IMG/VR virus record: IMGVR_UViG_3300024581_002302
Span: 22,131-86,130 of that record
DNA length: 64,000 nucleotides
From: a virus
Reading direction: 5' to 3' (one strand)
A program made the position numbers and the translations under genes. Positions 6,048 through 26,609 of this stretch are shown one piece after another. Position 1 is the stretch's first letter. Each line of letters starts with the position of its first letter. The notes below the pieces were generated by a model. It did not search any database. It saw only the letters and a list, made by a program, of their open reading frames with translations, and had not been told where the DNA came from.

Positions 6048-6165
6048 CGACAAAATAGACGCCCCAGATGGCCTATGCAACGTTTGACCGAATAGGCCCA
6101 CCTGAGGCTTGACAAGGGCACCGGAAGGCTGATACCGACGGGCGTGACGCCCCACACCATCAGCC

Positions 6166-8936: not shown

Positions 8937-11471
8937 ATGTCGACAGGGGCGAACCTCGAAAACACGTCTCTCAGTTGGCTCGACAAGGTCGACAGCCTGG
9001 GCAACGGCACGGTGAAGGCCCAGAACGCGATCCTGGCCACCAGCGTCGAGCAGATGCTGGGCGACCTGCGCGGCGTGTACCAGAAGATCGTCAAGAGCGA
9101 CGGCAAGTTCGGCAACTACGAAGCCAAGAACCTGCAGAACAGGGTCGAGAAGACGGTCGACCTGTTGCCACCTGCTGCTCGCAAGAAGCTGAGCGAGGTG
9201 TACGAGCGCGACCTGGCCGCGGCCCAGCAGATGGGCAGAGAGGCAGGGGTTGATCTCGACAAGTCACTGAACAACCGCAGCGAAGCGCAGAAGGCGAACG
9301 CTGCACCGAACGTCCCAGGGCAGAGAGCAGCAGGCCGTCGCCTGGCCCTGTTCTGGGACCAGGAGAACAGCAAGCTGACCGACCGGGTGCGTGCACTGAC
9401 GCAACAGGCAGCCCTGCAGGGCAAGTCCTGGCGATCCCTGTCCCTGCAGATCCGTGAGCTGCTGGTCCAGGAGCAGGCGCAGGGCACAGAGAGCGACCGC
9501 TCGAAGCGCGTCAACAAGCGCTACGGCATCAACGGCAGGGCCGAGCTGATCGCACGGACCGAGATGGCCAGCGCCTTCGTGCAGGGCAAGATCGACGAGA
9601 TGCGCCGTATGGGCTACACGTACGCGCGCTGGAGTGCTGCAGCTGAGCGCACCTGCGGGTACTGCATGTCCCGCGATGGCCTGGTGTATCCGATCGAGGA
9701 AGTGGAGGGGAGCATCCCTGCCCACCCACGCTGCCGCTGCTCGTTGATCCCTGTCGATGTCCCCAAGGACATGCAGAAGAAGGGGCCGAACGGTGAGAGC
9801 GCCGCAGCAGACCTCGACGACGCCTACTGGGCCAAGAGCCGCAACGACAAGCTGAACGAGTGGAAGCGCGAGCAGAACCTCGGCAAGAACGGCCAGCCGA
9901 AGCGGCCCGAGCTGTTGAAGAGCAACAGCGAACTCGACAAGGCGCTGCGGAACTACGCGCGCACACCAACGAACACGCAGAACTACCTGAGGCCGGGCCA
10001 ACCTGCTCCGCCGCCGTTCTGGGCGCCATCGGGGGAGATCATCCCGAACATGGGCGCCGCGGCCAAGAACGCCGAGGAGGCAGCCCGCAAGGACGAGGCC
10101 CTGGAGAAGGAGGCAGCCGATGCAATGAAGGCTGCAGAGAAGGAAGCCGAACGGGTCGCGCGTCAGAACAAGAAGGACGCGGAGATGGAGCAGAAGAGGG
10201 CGGACGAACTCGCCAAGAAGCAGCAGAAGAAGGCCGACGAGGCTCGCAAGCGCACAGAGAACGATCCCGACTTCAAGGCGGCGAAGCAGTGGGACCCGAA
10301 CATGACCCGGGAGCAGTTCGACGCACTGTCTCCAACGATGCGCGATGCCATCGTCAAGAAGGGCAGGGCACAGGACAAGGCTCCGAAGTGGGCCGTCGAT
10401 GGAGGTGTTGAGAACCTCTGGAAGCTGAGCACCCCAGCAGAGCGGGCTGTCCTGGAGCAGAGCGTCAAGCAGGCCGCAGCAGAGCGAGCTGAGCTGCAGA
10501 GGACGATCGCCAAGGCGAAGCAAGGTCAGGGGCTCACCACCAGCGACAAGTTCAAGATCCAGGAGCACTTCATCTCGAGCGGTGTCAGCCGGCTGAAGGC
10601 TCAGGACATGGCGGACGCGTTCGACATGCTCGGCAAGATCGGCGGCAAGGAGGCCGCGGCCAACTTCGCGAAGCTCGAGAAGTGGCTGAACAAGAACGGG
10701 ACGGTGATCCGTTTCGCGAACCCCGCCTACGACACCAAGGGCGTGCCCAGCAGGGCTACGCGCGAGAAGCTGATGAAGGAATGGGACGAGACCCGCAACG
10801 ACCCGAACTGGAAGCGGGCGATGGAGATGGGTCCGAACTCCTTCAACAAGTACGGCCAGGAACGCGACCGCAGATCAGCCGAGAAGGCGATCGAGGAGAC
10901 AGCGAAGGGCGACTACTTCGGCGCACGGTTCAACGGTGCGAACCGCAGGGCCCTGGGCTGGACGAAGCAGGGCTTCAACGCTGTGGTGATCTCAGACCAC
11001 AAGAACAGCAGGCCACTGAGCAGGCAGCGGGCCGAGGAGATGCTCGAGGTGCTCGAGCGCAACGCACGCTTCGCCATGGAGAACGGCCGGCCGAAGGAGT
11101 TCACCGGCATCTCGACTCACATCCACGAGTACAAGGGCAAGCACGGCAAGCAGGGCCAGACCGATGACACCTGGGTGTACACCGTGATGCACGAGCTGGG
11201 TCACAGCGTGCACTTCCACGGAGGCACCAGAGCCATCGATGGCACGAAGGCGGGAGCTGATGGCAGCAACGGAGGACGGCGTGTGCCGAACGATCAGAAG
11301 GGTGCAGGCAATCGCAGGGAGTTCGAGATCTCGCAATACGGGAACAGCGATCTGCAGGAGGCCTTCGCCGAGAACTTCGTTCTGTTCCTCACGAAGCCGC
11401 AGCTGTTGAAGCAGGCCAGCCCTGAGACGTACAAGTGGATCGACGACCACCTGAACCGCGGGCTCGAATAG
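8937..11471 (+). CDS. MuF (Mu gpF/SPP1 gp7-like) minor head protein with C-terminal zincin metallopeptidase
   Basis: RAELIARTE, RTCGYC, HPRCRC; C-terminal HELGH (11190) and SQYG..EAFAE. Confidence 0.85.
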   Translation: MSTGANLENTSLSWLDKVDSLGNGTVKAQNAILATSVEQMLGDLRGVYQKIVKSDGKFGNYEAKNLQNRVEKTVDLLPPAARKKLSEVYERDLAAAQQMGREAGVDLDKSLNNRSEAQKANAAPNVPGQRAAGRRLALFWDQENSKLTDRVRALTQQAALQGKSWRSLSLQIRELLVQEQAQGTESDRSKRVNKRYGINGRAELIARTEMASAFVQGKIDEMRRMGYTYARWSAAAERTCGYCMSRDGLVYPIEEVEGSIPAHPRCRCSLIPVDVPKDMQKKGPNGESAAADLDDAYWAKSRNDKLNEWKREQNLGKNGQPKRPELLKSNSELDKALRNYARTPTNTQNYLRPGQPAPPPFWAPSGEIIPNMGAAAKNAEEAARKDEALEKEAADAMKAAEKEAERVARQNKKDAEMEQKRADELAKKQQKKADEARKRTENDPDFKAAKQWDPNMTREQFDALSPTMRDAIVKKGRAQDKAPKWAVDGGVENLWKLSTPAERAVLEQSVKQAAAERAELQRTIAKAKQGQGLTTSDKFKIQEHFISSGVSRLKAQDMADAFDMLGKIGGKEAAANFAKLEKWLNKNGTVIRFANPAYDTKGVPSRATREKLMKEWDETRNDPNWKRAMEMGPNSFNKYGQERDRRSAEKAIEETAKGDYFGARFNGANRRALGWTKQGFNAVVISDHKNSRPLSRQRAEEMLEVLERNARFAMENGRPKEFTGISTHIHEYKGKHGKQGQTDDTWVYTVMHELGHSVHFHGGTRAIDGTKAGADGSNGGRRVPNDQKGAGNRREFEISQYGNSDLQEAFAENFVLFLTKPQLLKQASPETYKWIDDHLNRGLE

Positions 11472-11500
11472 GAAGCCTTGCGCAGCTCATACCCTGAAGC

Positions 11501-11671
11501 ATGAAGTCAACCGACCGCGCGCTGGAGATCATCGGCCTCGTCAGCGAGGGCCAGATGACTCCCGATGAGGCGTATGCGGAGCTGGACAAGCTGGTGGCCG
11601 CGGCCGAAGGGATGGAGAAGTTCGACATCTCGATGTCGTTCGAGGCTGTGCGCAAGTACGACGACCGCTGA
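11501..11671 (+). CDS. Small acidic protein (56 aa), candidate MuF immunity protein
   Basis: Directly downstream of MuF; GGAAGCCT 22 nt upstream. Confidence 0.6.
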   Translation: MKSTDRALEIIGLVSEGQMTPDEAYAELDKLVAAAEGMEKFDISMSFEAVRKYDDR

Positions 11672-11676
11672 GACAT

Positions 11677-11705
11677 AAAAAAGCGACCCCCGGATGAGAG
11701 TCGCC
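11677..11705 (-). terminator. Intrinsic terminator (minus strand)
   Basis: GGCGACTC..GGGGTCGC hairpin followed by TTTTTT on the minus strand. Confidence 0.75.
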
Positions 11706-11781
11706 TGAGTTTCCTTAAACCGTCACCTTCGGGTTGAACGTGTCCGAAGTGGACGGCAAAGGGTACGAGTCCCAGTGAGAC

Positions 11782-11964
11782 TCACTCGGAGAGATAAGCC
11801 TGGCCGCGGTAGGTCAGGACGACGGGATCCCGCTTAATGGGGAAGGACTTCGCGTACGCGTTCGCTACGCCGCGATAGGCCGTGGCCTGGAGATGGGCCA
11901 GCTGAGCAGCCTTGAGGGCTTGCTTGCGCTCGATGGAGCGCTTGATCAGAGCGAGAGGTGACAT
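11782..11964 (-). CDS. DUF4278-like small protein (GifB/IF17-related family)
   Basis: 60 aa with two motifs, TAYRGV..Y and LTYRGQAY. Confidence 0.8.
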   Translation of the reverse strand: MSPLALIKRSIERKQALKAAQLAHLQATAYRGVANAYAKSFPIKRDPVVLTYRGQAYLSE

Positions 11965-11982
11965 GGGGGTGTCTCCGCAGTG

Positions 11983-12040
11983 CCCGGGGCCCCGTTGCCT
12001 GCCCTGGGTCTGACTGCACCCGACAGTTGCCGGGTCAACG
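11983..12040 (-). ncRNA. Glutamine-II (Downstream-peptide) riboswitch
   Basis: CGUUG/CAACG P1, CCCGGC-AACU-GUCGGG P2, GUGCAG..ACCCAG..GGG..CCGGG pattern; ends 18 nt before the DUF4278 ATG. Confidence 0.75.
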
Positions 12041-12161
12041 TAACTCAGTGTACCGGGGCCTGTAGTGGTTGTTACAGGCTGAACAATATCCCTCGGGTGG
12101 GGGAGTTCGGAGTCGAACAGGTGCTCGTACCTTGTGCTGAAGTTGACACCACGACCACCTC

Positions 12162-12686
12162 ATGCGCATTCGATCCTTACTCGCTGCCGCCACCATCGCA
12201 GCTGCTTCTGTCCTCCCTGGTGCTGCCCTGGCCACCCCGAACAACAGCGCCTCCTCCGCAAGCCTTGGCCGAGCTGTGATCGATGCCGGCGTCACCTTCT
12301 ACACCTCGTGCCCTGAGAGCATCACCTTCGCCGGCGCCTACAGCGGACAGGAGCGAGCCTTCATCGTCTGCGCTGATGGTCGCCGCCCGTATCAGTACTC
12401 CCAGGAGGAGCAGGACACCCTGCGCCATGAAGCGATCCACCTGGCCCAGGACTGCATGGATGGCACTCTGGGCAATGGCCTGGAGACCACCCGCTACATC
12501 ACGACCGTGATGAAGCTGGTCGCCGAGTCTGGAATCAATGCCGCACAGATCGAGGAGCTGTACCGCCGCAATGGTGCAGACGATCACGTGATCCTGCTCG
12601 AGCTGGAGGCCTGGGCTGGTGCTGCGTTCTTCTCGAATGAGGAGGTCGAGGCCCTGCTCCGTAAGGCTTGCCGTCTGCCTGTATGA
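12162..12686 (+). CDS. Exported zincin-like (HExxH) protein
   Basis: Signal peptide; LRHEAIHLAQDC and a downstream ELEA. Confidence 0.7.
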   Translation: MRIRSLLAAATIAAASVLPGAALATPNNSASSASLGRAVIDAGVTFYTSCPESITFAGAYSGQERAFIVCADGRRPYQYSQEEQDTLRHEAIHLAQDCMDGTLGNGLETTRYITTVMKLVAESGINAAQIEELYRRNGADDHVILLELEAWAGAAFFSNEEVEALLRKACRLPV

Positions 12687-13025: not shown

Positions 13026-13061
13026 CAAGCACCGGTACCCTGTGCCACCTGCGATCGATCC

Positions 13062-16800: not shown

Positions 16801-17189
16801 TGGATCTGGCGCCTGCCACCATCTGCAAGGCCCTGGTCGTGGAGCTGATTCGTCGGCTCTGGGATCGGGGTCTTCTCTCGAAGTTCAACAAGTGGGCCGT
16901 CGCCATTCACGACAACTGGCTGCCCGAGTGGATTGACTACAAGACCATGAAGACCATGGTCGACGTGGACCGTCAGGCCGAAGAGATCCGCGCGAACGCG
17001 GAGGCCGAGGACGCCAAGAAGTACGCCCCGGTGTACACGGAAACCCAGAAGGGAGAGACCGCGCTCGGAGGACCGATGCAGCTCTCACATCCGACCCTGG
17101 GACAATTCGATGCCATCACCGACCCCGATACCGCCGAAGCCGACACCGAAGCCAAGGACACCCGCGAAGCCGAAGGCCGCGGCCGTTAA
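16800..17189 (+). CDS. Hypothetical protein
   Basis: TGATG coupling. Confidence 0.7.
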   Translation: MDLAPATICKALVVELIRRLWDRGLLSKFNKWAVAIHDNWLPEWIDYKTMKTMVDVDRQAEEIRANAEAEDAKKYAPVYTETQKGETALGGPMQLSHPTLGQFDAITDPDTAEADTEAKDTREAEGRGR

Positions 17190-21668: not shown

Positions 21669-22391
21669 ATGGCTGCCGATACTGCCGCGCACACCGCTCT
21701 CCCGTTCCTGACGACCCCCAAGGTCGACAAGATCATCGTCGGCGACGAGAGCACCGGGACGCTCGAGTTCCCCGTGTACAACGACCTGACGGTGGCCGAG
21801 TCGGCCTGGATGGCAGCCAATCAGGCGAAGGAGACCGCATTCGCGCACACCTCGAAGTGCGCACTGAAAATCGCAAGGGCGGAGAACGTGAAGCCGATCG
21901 AGGCGCATGGCTTCGTGGCGAAGGTATTGGCCGCGGCCATGGGTGCCTCCGAGCTGGAGTTCACCCCGATCGAGCTGGAGTGGCAGGTCAAGTATCTGAA
22001 GGACCTCGAGAGAACCGCCTTCGAGGTGCTCGAGATCTCCGTGGCGCAGCAGCAGATGCTCGTCACCTGCGTGATCCGTCACCGCCTGGAAGGCATGAGC
22101 GAGTGGTCCGCACACGACACCGCCAACATGCCCACACATCTCTGTGAGGCGATCTATGAGTTCGCCCTGAAGGAGCAGAGCCGAGGCAAGTCCGAAGACC
22201 CCTCCGCTGACACCGTGGAGGAGATCGAAGAGCTGCTGGGAAAGTCGAGGACGGAAAGTACGACGGCCCCGTCGAAGTCGACTGGGCGGAGGTCTTCCAC
22301 CAAGTCCGGGAACTCCACCCGGGCTCGCAAGAATTCACGGCCGAAAGCTTCGGAGGACTCAGATCCGGATACGTCCTCGAATGCCTCGTAG
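21669..22391 (+). CDS. Tail assembly chaperone (gpG-like)
   Basis: Contains in-frame G GGA AAG slippery site at 22238-22244. Confidence 0.75.
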   Translation: MAADTAAHTALPFLTTPKVDKIIVGDESTGTLEFPVYNDLTVAESAWMAANQAKETAFAHTSKCALKIARAENVKPIEAHGFVAKVLAAAMGASELEFTPIELEWQVKYLKDLERTAFEVLEISVAQQQMLVTCVIRHRLEGMSEWSAHDTANMPTHLCEAIYEFALKEQSRGKSEDPSADTVEEIEELLGKSRTESTTAPSKSTGRRSSTKSGNSTRARKNSRPKASEDSDPDTSSNAS

Positions 22392-24335: not shown

Positions 24336-26609
24336 ATGGCAAAGCAAGTTCAGTACAGAGGCGGCACTCAGTCCGCGTCTGAAATCTTCATCGGCGCTCC
24401 TCGCGAGATCACCGTCGACACCGACCTCAACACCCTGCGCGTTCACGACGGCTCGACCCCTGGTGGTCACCTGCTCGGGAAGTGGGACTTCGGGCCCCAG
24501 TACAAGGGCACCTGGAACGCAGACACCAACACCCCAGACCTGACCCAGCCCGGCGCTGTCGCTGGTGACTTCTACGTCGTCGCCGAACCTGGCCAGACAG
24601 AGATCAACGGATACGACAACTGGAACAACGGCGACCGGATCATCTGGTCGGGCAGCGCATGGGAGCAGATCCGCCCCCAGACCCTGGCCGACAGCACCAC
24701 GAACACCGTCGTCCTGAACACGAACACCGCAGTCTTCGCTGATGGTGACCCTGCCCAGTTCGCTCCCAGCGGGAAGTCCGGCTGGTTCTACGAGAACGAA
24801 CAAGGCAGGAAGATCAACTGGTACTTCTACGCGCTGAACCCGAACTTCAACTACACGATCGACGACTTCGAGGGGTTCTACTTCGTGTGGGAGAAGCTGA
24901 ACGACACCAGCTACTGCTTCATCAACATGTACACGATGCCCAAGCTCGGAGGCGGTAACGCTGCGAGCTGGTATCGCTCCCGTATCACCTTCGACAAGCG
25001 TGACGAGATGGAAGCGCTGCCCCCGGGCCGCTACCTCGTGCACATGGAAGGCGCCAACGTGGACGCCATCGAGCCCACCCTGACCCGCTTCGCTCTGCCG
25101 GTGAGTGCCTTCACCACCGTCGGTCCGCAGGATAGTGACGAGACCATCCAGACCATCTCGATCCAGACCTCCACCAACCACGACGCAGGCCACAACCGGT
25201 TCATCGTCAACAAGCTCGGCTACACCATCCGCGGCCAGCGTCAGGACTTCGATCTCGTCGCCCTGCCCCAGGCTCCGCCGAACTACTTCAACTACTACCG
25301 GGGCGCCTACGCCACCGCCGAGGACTATCCGGCATCTGCCGAGCTGGGTCAGTGGCTGATCAACAGCACAGACAACACCACGGTCGTCTGGGACGCTGAT
25401 GGTGGTCAGTGGGTGGCAACTGGTGCCGGCGCTTCTGCTGGTGCTCCTGCAGCGGCTTCTGTCGACTATCCCTTCCAGTACACGTACAGCAGCCTCGATG
25501 GCAGCGGCTACGGATACGCGAACGCCTACCCGACCGTCGAGTGGTCGAACTCCCCCGACGGCAAGATCCAGGCCAACACAGGCACCAACGGATCCGGAAG
25601 CGTGGCGAGCGACATCCTCGGCCGTCGCGTCAAGTTCGCAACCTTGAAGAACCCCGGCGACCAGGTGACCTTCCAGGCCACCGACAACGGCGGCGTCTAC
25701 AACCGCTACTGCATCATCGGCCTCGAGCCTGGCACTGATGCCAACGCCCTTTCCTGGAAGGTTGCAGGCCAGCCCGGCAGCGGCACCTCCTGGATGCTCA
25801 GCAACAGCGACGACTACTCGAAGGTGGTCCTCTACCACTCCTACATGGAGCCCTACTGGGGCGGCACCACCTACGGCCACAACCTGACATCCGCCAGGAA
25901 CTCCACTGGTCTGGCTGGCATCTCTGGCAATCAGGGCGAGCTTCCTATCACTTATCGCGTCGGCGACGACTATCGGATCGAGGTCTACATCGACGGGAAC
26001 TACTTCGTGAAGACGAACTCCGTCCCCTCCTCTGGTGTCGAGCTGTATCTGACGACCTACAGCAACACCGGCCGGACCTTCTATCAGCCCACAGGCAATG
26101 GTGCGAACTACATCAGCAACGGCTCAGCCGCTGCGACTGGCGCTCGCTTCTTCATGTCGAAGGTCGGCTTCCCTGCTGGCTCTCAGGAGATCTCCTCCGG
26201 CGGTGGCAGCTTCCTGTACAGCGCACAGAACCCAGGCGACGCAGCCGACGTCGAACTGGACTCTCAGGAGGCAAACGCTGCTCGCTTCTCCCGTGTGTTC
26301 GTCAACTACGGCGGAATGAGCGTGGCCGAGCGTGCCGAGTCCACTCTCCCCGTCGTCGAGTGTGACGAGAAGGTTCTGTCCCATGTCGAGTACCTGGCCC
26401 GGGGCTACTTCCACAGCCTCGACCTGACCGTCCCTGAGATCCAGGCCAAGATGGCCGAGTTCGCTGATGCTCTGGCCGCAGCTGTGGCCGGCTCAGTCGA
26501 GGTCACCCTGGCGATCCTTCAGGGAATGCTCGGCACCACCACCGAGCCCGACCTCTGCCAGGAGCTGATCGATGTGCTCACCGTTCACTTGTTGAAGTTC
26601 CCCCGCTGA
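24336..26609 (+). CDS. Tail fibre/receptor-binding protein with Mtd_N-like N-terminus
   Basis: QYRGGT..FIGAPREITVDTDLNTLRVHDGSTPGG; 757 aa from ATG 24336. Confidence 0.8.
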   Translation: MAKQVQYRGGTQSASEIFIGAPREITVDTDLNTLRVHDGSTPGGHLLGKWDFGPQYKGTWNADTNTPDLTQPGAVAGDFYVVAEPGQTEINGYDNWNNGDRIIWSGSAWEQIRPQTLADSTTNTVVLNTNTAVFADGDPAQFAPSGKSGWFYENEQGRKINWYFYALNPNFNYTIDDFEGFYFVWEKLNDTSYCFINMYTMPKLGGGNAASWYRSRITFDKRDEMEALPPGRYLVHMEGANVDAIEPTLTRFALPVSAFTTVGPQDSDETIQTISIQTSTNHDAGHNRFIVNKLGYTIRGQRQDFDLVALPQAPPNYFNYYRGAYATAEDYPASAELGQWLINSTDNTTVVWDADGGQWVATGAGASAGAPAAASVDYPFQYTYSSLDGSGYGYANAYPTVEWSNSPDGKIQANTGTNGSGSVASDILGRRVKFATLKNPGDQVTFQATDNGGVYNRYCIIGLEPGTDANALSWKVAGQPGSGTSWMLSNSDDYSKVVLYHSYMEPYWGGTTYGHNLTSARNSTGLAGISGNQGELPITYRVGDDYRIEVYIDGNYFVKTNSVPSSGVELYLTTYSNTGRTFYQPTGNGANYISNGSAAATGARFFMSKVGFPAGSQEISSGGGSFLYSAQNPGDAADVELDSQEANAARFSRVFVNYGGMSVAERAESTLPVVECDEKVLSHVEYLARGYFHSLDLTVPEIQAKMAEFADALAAAVAGSVEVTLAILQGMLGTTTEPDLCQELIDVLTVHLLKFPR

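Follow-up and report, generated by a model that had tools for sequence, protein, structure and literature searches.

The closest described relatives of the locus reported here are the type 2 glutamine riboswitches (Glutamine-II, formerly Downstream-peptide) that precede a gene for an IF17-like DUF4278 peptide, as in PMM1846/yfr6 of Prochlorococcus MED4 (PMC2864571, PMC6212724, PMC6698751), and gifB (IF17) of Synechocystis sp. PCC 6803, in which an NtcA-repressed promoter is combined with a glutamine-activated riboswitch. A stretch of 64,000 nucleotides (nt), hereafter the window, was taken from the IMG/VR virus record IMGVR_UViG_3300024581_002302 (positions 22,131 to 86,130; record length, 99.5 kb; CheckV completeness estimate, 93%), and carries on its minus strand a Glutamine-II aptamer followed by the gene for a 60-residue peptide (P0001). 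This cassette is probably a self-contained, host-derived nitrogen-status device of a cyanosiphovirus of the P-SS2/S-CBS2 type. Earlier publications cover the riboswitch class, its association with DUF4278, the control of such genes by NtcA and the presence of glutamine riboswitches in phages; in the searchable literature, we found neither the cassette throughout the P-SS2/S-CBS2 siphovirus lineage, nor a subclass (class B below) with its own operator geometry and linker, nor a phage-specific GG-TAnnnT form of its promoter.

IF17 is a 17-kDa protein with an IF7-like C-terminal half that binds glutamine synthetase (GS); DUF4278 corresponds to its N-terminal part, which stabilises IF17 and is dispensable for GS inactivation. 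The short DUF4278 peptides of picocyanobacteria lack the C-terminal GS-interacting residues, and no function has been assigned to them (PMC6212724, PMC6316151). GS inhibition has been proven for IF17 only, not for the short peptides. Binding of L-glutamine and ligand-dependent gene control have been shown for class-A representatives only (PMC6212724, PMC6698751), and expression under the MED4 type 2 riboswitch increased after ammonium addition (PMC6212724). Repressive NtcA sites are centred at -30.5 and -7.5 in Synechocystis gifA and gifB and at -28.5 in Anabaena gifA (PMC6316151), and the MED4 IF17-like gene has a perfect NtcA site at its transcription start (PMC6212724). Phage-borne glutamine riboswitches have been reported for T4-like cyanomyoviruses and pelagiphage/OM43 phages (PMC9964418, PMC9602691, PMC9004378); unlike the window copy, those specified there (Melnitz, S-CREM1) come from myoviruses and are of the glnA type (type 1). 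The Melnitz RNA is linked to a tmRNA gene, neither of the other two papers specifies a gene downstream, and no NtcA operator has been described for phage copies of the Melnitz/S-CREM1 type.

The window cassette resembles the MED4 PMM1846/yfr6 type in its aptamer fold, its ligand-contact bases, its position as the leader of a short open reading frame (ORF) with YRG motifs, an NtcA box in the promoter, and a terminator. It differs in that the C5:G36 pair is swapped to G:C, the linker contains a conserved CACUG-GGAG, the peptide has an N-terminal extension of approximately 28 residues ahead of the first YRG, the NtcA box covers the -35 region (approximately -28 to -31) instead of between the -10 element and the aptamer, and the replicon is viral. 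The proposed promoter logic and glutamine-activated control, and the DUF4278 similarity, are those of gifB, and the NtcA sites of gifB and gifA, near -30 and -7, are comparable to the window boxes; gifB, however, uses a type 1 aptamer (glnA RNA, three-way junction). The cassettes of the cultured siphoviruses P-SS2 (gp038), S-CBS2 (gp099) and S-CRES1 have a homologous aptamer, linker, peptide type and terminator, belong to the same virus lineage and are located downstream of the portal gene. Unlike the window, S-CBS2 keeps the canonical GUUC/GAAC pseudoknot, and the P-SS2 aptamer is below the Rfam cut-off and has no perfect NtcA box.

Aptamer and peptide gene

The leader of P0001 was matched to RF01704 (Glutamine-II) by cmscan against the 4227 families of Rfam 15, with 43.6 bits against a gathering cut-off of 33 (E-value, 2.6e-07 over the whole window and 4.1e-09 over 1 kb) and with model positions 1-60 of 60 covered. 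This was the sole Rfam match above gathering in the window and the sole copy in the record. The original prediction, made from the letters of the window, had read the minus strand from 12054 to 11782 as a small ORF led by a Glutamine-II aptamer, with 18 nt between aptamer and ATG, and had named the RF01704 threshold as a check. Its letters agree with the sequence, including the 18-nt linker, and the aptamer is supported both by the score and by the covariation given below. Its view of GUUG/CAAC as a compensatory replacement also holds, the change being located at C5:G36, a pseudoknot pair that is at most 97% conserved and makes no ligand contact (PMC6698751). The A-C mismatch that it had placed in the pseudoknot (A12005/C11986) is actually in stem P2, and the CGUUG/CAACG helix is fully complementary.

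The covariation alignment comprised 14 cassettes, of which 3 were cellular and 11 came from viruses or metagenomes. Standard pairs were found in 97.7% of the pair cells, and both-sided changes at all 10 tested pairs (4/4 in P1 and 6/6 in P2). The observed covariation score was reached by none of 500 column shuffles, and pairing dropped to 29-48% when the 3′ partners were slid as a control. Only the last pair of the pseudoknot varied, being G:C in 13 sequences and, by compensatory change, C:G in S-CBS2; the long-range C:G pair (C19:G41) was invariant across the alignment.

In the crystal structure, glutamine contacts the C1:G40 pair, the G18>G2:C39 triple and the C19:G41 pair, and U4:A37 and C5:G36 are the sole pseudoknot pairs that are not more than 97% conserved (PMC6698751). 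All ligand-contact bases of the crystal are found in the window (C1, G2, G18, C19, C39, G40, G41, and A33:G42), as are all bases that are either in contact or more than 97% conserved (C1, G2, U3, G18, C19, A33, G35, A38, C39, G40, G41, and G42), the sole change being that at C5:G36. The window variant is therefore expected, on the basis of the crystal structure, to be ligand-competent, and the GUUG/CAAC pseudoknot is a mark of a subclass, not a defect.

P0001 matched phrog_545 with an E-value of 5.5e-10, and its family was gathered by an exhaustive phmmer search (12 representatives). Against DUF4278 (PF14105), P0001 alone gave 18.1 bits (E-value, 0.0035; residues 26-57 on profile positions 23-57; 16.5 bits on the genome), below the gathering cut-off of 25.3, and DUF4278 was matched by 13 of the 14 family members at E <= 1 (best E-value, 4.7e-06). 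The DUF4278 assignment of the original prediction is thus upheld at the level of the related family and falls below the cut-off for P0001 by itself. Its description of the peptide as GifB-like is borne out for the regulation and, in part, for the homology; its suggestion that the phage may tune GS activity is unsupported in that form, DUF4278 being the dispensable N-terminal part of IF17.

The peptide contains the repeated motif (L/V)xYRGxxY, with Y30-R31-G32 and Y52-R53-G54 invariant in 22 sequences; five residues follow the second YRG. Basic and rich in arginine, the peptide is under purifying selection, with a ratio of nonsynonymous to synonymous substitution rates (dN/dS) of 0.2-0.4 against relatives in pairs with unsaturated dS. 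No NCBIfam match was obtained for P0001 at E <= 1, and the one match of its family, to an unrelated antitoxin family, was weak. No solved relative emerged when the PDB was searched with a profile, and the ESM Atlas model of the peptide was of low confidence (pLDDT 0.52).

Promoter, virus lineage and cassette classes

In each of the 14 cassettes, CGUU is preceded at a distance of 6-9 nt by a TAnnnT hexamer (TACACT in the window; TAGAAT, TATAAT, TACAAT, and TATAGT among others), so transcription is predicted to start at or just before the first aptamer base, and box positions were counted from this predicted -10 element and start. The window contains four matches to the NtcA consensus GTA-N8-TAC (shuffle mean, 1.06), two of them at the cassette promoter. 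A perfect NtcA box was found in 11 of 14 class-B promoter regions (shuffle mean, 0.21; maximum, 3; 2000 shuffles). Boxes cluster at -28.5 to -31.5: the window has one there, as do 7 of the 13 remaining class-B promoter regions that were compared, and contig L006 carries a one-mismatch copy of box 1. Box 2 is perfect in the window and in L002, and boxes at the same position occur in S-CBS2 and L069. The GTA-N8-TAC boxes overlap predicted core promoter elements and are kept among orthologous promoters, as at promoters of the gifA/gifB type. The dinucleotide GG precedes the -10 element in 10/11 phage copies and in 0/10 cellular class-B copies, which have CC or CT there, and the phage may have tuned the cassette promoter to its own transcription programme. 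A promoter activated by NtcA (box 1 at -41.5, -10 = TACGTT) was also considered and rejected, because its start would fall inside the conserved pseudoknot strand and because TAnnnT lies 6-9 nt before CGUU in all relatives.

Relatives of the cassette were reached through a search of 5.8 billion proteins, the contigs encoding the hits, scanning of complete phage records with Rfam, and a DNA pattern. Marine metagenome contigs were found to encode close homologues of the peptide (67-90% identity), each with an RF01704 match of 41.6-53.4 bits. Contigs L002-L007 contain the cassette and, where flanks suffice, the gene neighbourhood of the window, in the order MuF gene, ORF of 46-56 residues, opposite-strand peptide gene, and gene of 171-174 residues. 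Further cassettes were detected by the DNA pattern scan in viral contigs L016, L046, L069, and L070; the loose pattern (CGTTGA..GCAGT..GCAACGG) matched more than 119 viral stretches, mostly by chance, of which four passed the pairing filters with a peptide. The portals of L046 and L069 are 49-60% identical to that of the window, and their ribonucleotide reductase (RNR) and other proteins are homologous too. A tblastn search of cultured phages with P0001 and a back-translated scan of viral contigs returned nothing. The cassettes of P-SS2, S-CBS2, and S-CRES1 are listed in Table 1; the P-SS2 (RefSeq), S-CBS2 (RefSeq), and S-CRES1 (GenBank) records have no RNA feature annotated at these positions, so this annotation is added here. 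The cassette is conserved lineage-wide in P-SS2/S-CBS2 siphoviruses, over a range of 45-62% GC. It is inverted relative to the structural genes in the window clade and co-directional with them in the other siphoviruses; in the window itself, it forms a single small opposite-strand unit amid plus-strand head-module genes.

Judged by its genes, the record comes from an uncultured cyanosiphovirus of the P-SS2/S-CBS2 type. Among the proteins encoded are RNR, tail proteins, a portal of the DUF4055 family, and a minor head protein of the MuF type. Structural genes are shared with cultured members: the identity of the portal is 59% with that of the Prochlorococcus siphovirus P-SS2 and approximately 50% with those of S-CBS2 and S-CRES1-3, which are siphoviruses of Synechococcus. 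Two sigma-70-family proteins are encoded in the record outside the window (G000:C1:8343-8567, 16909-17109), as is likewise the case in P-SS2. These genes agree with the phage origin assumed in the original prediction. High-GC marine or estuarine Synechococcus is the likeliest host because the GC content of the window is 60-65%. No GS gene and no tyrosine integrase were found in the phage record, and a role of the cassette as a prophage 'moron' has no support for want of the latter.

Of 41 genomes sampled from the picocyanobacterial family, 25 had RF01704 matches, and approximately 70 sites that were read showed two cassette types. Class A has a GUUC/GAAC pseudoknot, a peptide of 33 or approximately 55 residues starting with M(S/T)LTYRG, and an NtcA box, GTAGCAACnGCTAC, between the -10 element and the aptamer. 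Class B, to which the window cassette is assigned from its sequence, has GUUG/CAAC in 10/10 cellular copies read, a perfect NtcA box centred -28.5 to -31.5 from C1 in 8/10 of them, and a peptide of the form MxxLxLI...AQ...AKAYRGV...YRGxxY, 55-60 residues overall. Typical cellular class-B copies (e.g., L139, L160, L161, and L174) have the linker CACUG followed by GGAG and a peptide of approximately 57-60 residues of the form MNxLxLI...AQ...MAKAYRGV...YRGxxY; divergent ones have linkers such as CACCG, CAUUA, or CGCUG and ORFs of 32-68 residues. The cellular copies L168 and L170 (G038, G003) are intermediate: their 68-residue peptide has a class-B-like N-terminus (MNALQLLKERELR...), and their pseudoknot (C:G), their linker, and the position of their NtcA box (-10.5) are those of class A. 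In S-CBS2, a class-B peptide occurs together with the C:G pair. Because of these intermediate and mixed copies, the division of RF01704 cassettes by operator geometry and expression platform is a working description and not a strict rule. The NtcA operators, the lineage-wide conservation, and the pseudoknot variant as a subclass mark common to host and phage are additions to the original prediction.

Table 1. Features of the cassette in the window, and corresponding cassettes in cultured phages (positions of the latter refer to the phage records)
Feature	Position	Strand	Remarks
NtcA box 1, cTGTAACAACCACTACAg (GTA-N8-TAC)	12062..12075	-	over -35; centre approximately -28 from predicted start
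Promoter -10 element GG-TACACT (GGTACACT, 12054-12047)	12047..12054	-	predicted; TAnnnT conserved in 14/14 class-B cassettes
NtcA box 2, GTACACTGAGTTAC	12040..12053	-	over -10, predicted start and first aptamer base; centre approximately -6
Glutamine-II aptamer	11983..12043	-	RF01704 match; covariation; ligand contacts mapped from PMC6698751
Pseudoknot 5′ strand CGUUG	12040-12036	-	
P1	12034-12030 paired with 12023-12019	-	
Linking strand GCAGU	12017-12013	-	
Long-range pair	C12016:G11992	-	
P2	12008-12001 paired with 11990-11983	-	
Pseudoknot 3′ strand CAACG	11997-11993	-	
Linker CACUGC, candidate switching sequence	11977..11982	-	directly 3′ of P2; complementary to GCAGU
Shine-Dalgarno GGAG	11973..11976	-	8 nt before AUG; read from sequence, conserved in alignment
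Peptide gene P0001, 60 residues	11782..11964	-	ATG at 11964; TGA 11784-11782; two YRG motifs; class-B DUF4278-like; phrog_545; purifying selection
Structured 3′ untranslated region	11707..11781	-	from folding; short hairpin just 3′ of stop, then long hairpin with 11-nt loop ACACGUUCAAC
Intrinsic terminator closing the cassette	11681..11706	-	11-bp stem, then U-run
S-CBS2 (NC_015463.1) aptamer	70798-70856		66 bits; cassette 70798-71050; downstream ORF gp099, 58 residues
S-CRES1 (OQ587939.1) aptamer	25365-25426		47 bits; cassette 25365-25610; downstream uncalled ORF of 55 residues
P-SS2 (NC_013021.1) aptamer	25481-25537		30.8 bits, just below cut-off; cassette 25481-25730; downstream gp038, 57 residues

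Proposed control and alternative explanations

The trinucleotide CUG following P2 is invariant in 14/14 class-B cassettes, though it is outside the Rfam model. Pairing of the linker with GCAG(U) is possible in 95.7% of cells, and the linker:GCAGU helix appeared in the unconstrained minimum-energy fold of 9/14 sequences and also when 102 nt of the window leader were folded. Since no terminator separates the aptamer from the ORF, control should be exerted at translation, and glutamine binding should release CACUG, which abuts the Shine-Dalgarno GGAG, because binding needs G18 and C19 of the GCAGU strand.

On these grounds, the cassette would probably work as follows. A sigma-70-type promoter (-10 TACACT) would be overlapped by two NtcA operators, centred at approximately -28 and -6, and in a nitrogen-starved infected cell, in which 2-oxoglutarate is high, NtcA would be bound and transcription blocked, as at gifA and gifB. 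The transcript would start nearly at the first aptamer base. Binding of glutamine would then stabilise the CGUUG/CAACG pseudoknot and draw the GCAGU linking strand into the groove, and the conserved CACUG beside the Shine-Dalgarno sequence would be released, turning translation on; this release mechanism, a model, is given moderate weight, and the ON polarity is presumed from the MED4 experiment. The output would be the 60-residue DUF4278-like peptide. Since no GS gene was found in the phage, the target of the peptide is presumed to belong to the host, GS itself being no more than a candidate. Net, the peptide would be made only at plentiful nitrogen, that is, low 2-oxoglutarate together with high glutamine, as for gifB, and the phage copy would probably keep the host feedback peptide supplied during infection. 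Expression of a DUF4278 gene of Synechococcus WH7803 rises early and then falls in a podovirus infection (PMC7885011); this transient induction fits, and does not prove, a need of the phage to keep the peptide supplied.

Several observations weigh against this account of the control. The GCAGU:ACUGY helix showed no covariation, ViennaRNA folding with the pseudoknot bases withheld gave no consistent opening of the Shine-Dalgarno sequence, and the latter tended to pair with codons 3-4 (CCUC) in both modelled states. Box 2 is weaker evidence than box 1, since it shares its GTA with the -10 motif and its C with the aptamer (base C1), and the match may be partly coincidental; P-SS2, L016, and L046 have no perfect NtcA box. 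Given the GG ahead of their -10 element, the phage copies may be read by a sigma factor of the phage (two are encoded in the record), which could alter the action of NtcA.

If the regulation is as proposed, the peptide might be a true GS inactivating factor, a functional analogue of IF17/IF7 with which the phage shuts down host ammonium assimilation when glutamine is plentiful. Dual control by NtcA operators and a glutamine riboswitch, as for gifB (PMC6316151), would be apt for such a factor, the similarity to DUF4278 and the basic, arginine-rich sequence with its two invariant YRG motifs are in line with it, and a co-evolved GS interaction of the short forms has been suggested as a possibility in the review literature (PMC6316151). 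These points are set against the dispensability of the DUF4278 part for GS inactivation, the absence of C-terminal GS-binding residues from the picocyanobacterial short forms, earlier work that argued against IF-type GS control in picocyanobacteria (PMC6212724, PMC6316151), and the database results for P0001 (below the Pfam cut-off, no NCBIfam match at E <= 1, no solved relative found), and we regard a GS inactivating factor as possible, although doubtful. A broader role is put forward tentatively and seems rather unlikely at present: that of a lineage-wide auxiliary regulator that reads 2-oxoglutarate through NtcA and glutamine through the class-B riboswitch, and whose peptide directly modulates host nitrogen assimilation at GS or another target in the PII/NtcA network.

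Two further explanations were considered. According to one, the riboswitch and ORF gate a small RNA, the 3′ hairpin of the window/L002 clade, released by mRNA processing or made from its own GTACCCT promoter-like motif, with the peptide secondary. The region 11790-11672 (terminator included) does fold with z = -5.1 against shuffles, is kept between the window and L002, and contains before its long hairpin, at 11767-11760, CGTACCCT, which resembles the phage GGTACnCT motif. The element is, however, absent from L005, L006, and all other relatives, in which the terminator directly follows the ORF, and has no Rfam match; a 5-nt loop match is expected by chance, and the peptide is conserved under purifying selection across the whole lineage. 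We consider an RNA output highly improbable. Still less probable, and disfavoured, is that the cassette is a recently captured host fragment that has no role in infection and has not yet decayed. In favour of such a passenger, the class-B cassettes of hosts agree with it in operator, linker, and type of peptide, and the cassette is inverted in the window clade relative to other siphoviruses; yet it is present in every relative examined, over 45-62% GC and portal identities down to approximately 50%, its RNA pairs are kept by compensatory changes, the dN/dS of its peptide is 0.2-0.4, and the phage-shared GG-TAnnnT -10 element, unseen in cellular copies, suggests adaptation to the phage. Because the siphovirus lineage keeps the subclass and its NtcA operator, with compensatory RNA changes and purifying selection, we argue that the peptide matters in infection.

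If the peptide acts directly on host nitrogen assimilation, it would be the first case of a phage encoding a post-translational controller of the nitrogen metabolism of its host, and would give a handle on the role of DUF4278 peptides in the most abundant phototrophs of the ocean. Marine Synechococcus and Prochlorococcus have several copies per genome of type 2 glutamine riboswitches and DUF4278 peptides. Cultured systems are at hand in S-CBS2 and S-CRES1 (Synechococcus; strain CB0204 for S-CBS2) and P-SS2 (Prochlorococcus MIT9313).

Cassette 3′ end and further promoter-like motifs

The relatives of the cassette likewise end in a GC hairpin and a U-run, and the structured 3′ untranslated region is conserved in the window/L002 clade only. 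Its long-hairpin loop contains ACGUUCA, resembling the 5′ strand of the canonical (GUUC) pseudoknot, and the structured stretch could be a 3′-UTR-derived or an independent small RNA. A second riboswitch 3′ of the ORF, at CGUUCAACCCGAAGG, appeared glnA-like by eye and was rejected, as it had no Rfam match even at E <= 10 and is clade-specific. A minus-strand ORF of 95 residues (11389-11676) begins right after the terminator and overlaps a plus-strand ORF of 56 residues (11501-11671), which is favoured by metagenome gene callers; in L006, an ORF of 86 residues is called co-directionally after the peptide gene.

Upstream of the 174-residue gene at 12162, a conserved block on the plus strand (12117-12137, ACAGGTGCTCGTACCTTGTGC) contains CGTACCTT approximately 36 nt before the ATG. 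This sequence resembles the GGTACnCT motifs at 13034 and 19727 and is probably the divergent promoter of the 174-residue gene, in which case the 197-nt spacer would have two back-to-back promoters with NtcA box 1 between them. Besides the motif at the cassette promoter, the window has three of the form CCGGTACnCT. A much commoner motif, cGGAAnnCT, has 29 plus-strand copies in the window against approximately 14 expected, mostly 28-37 nt upstream of ORF starts (for example at 6123, 8907, 11471, 12742, 19972, 21641, 27956, 38186, 40676, 53879, and 62049), and is likely a phage-specific promoter class.

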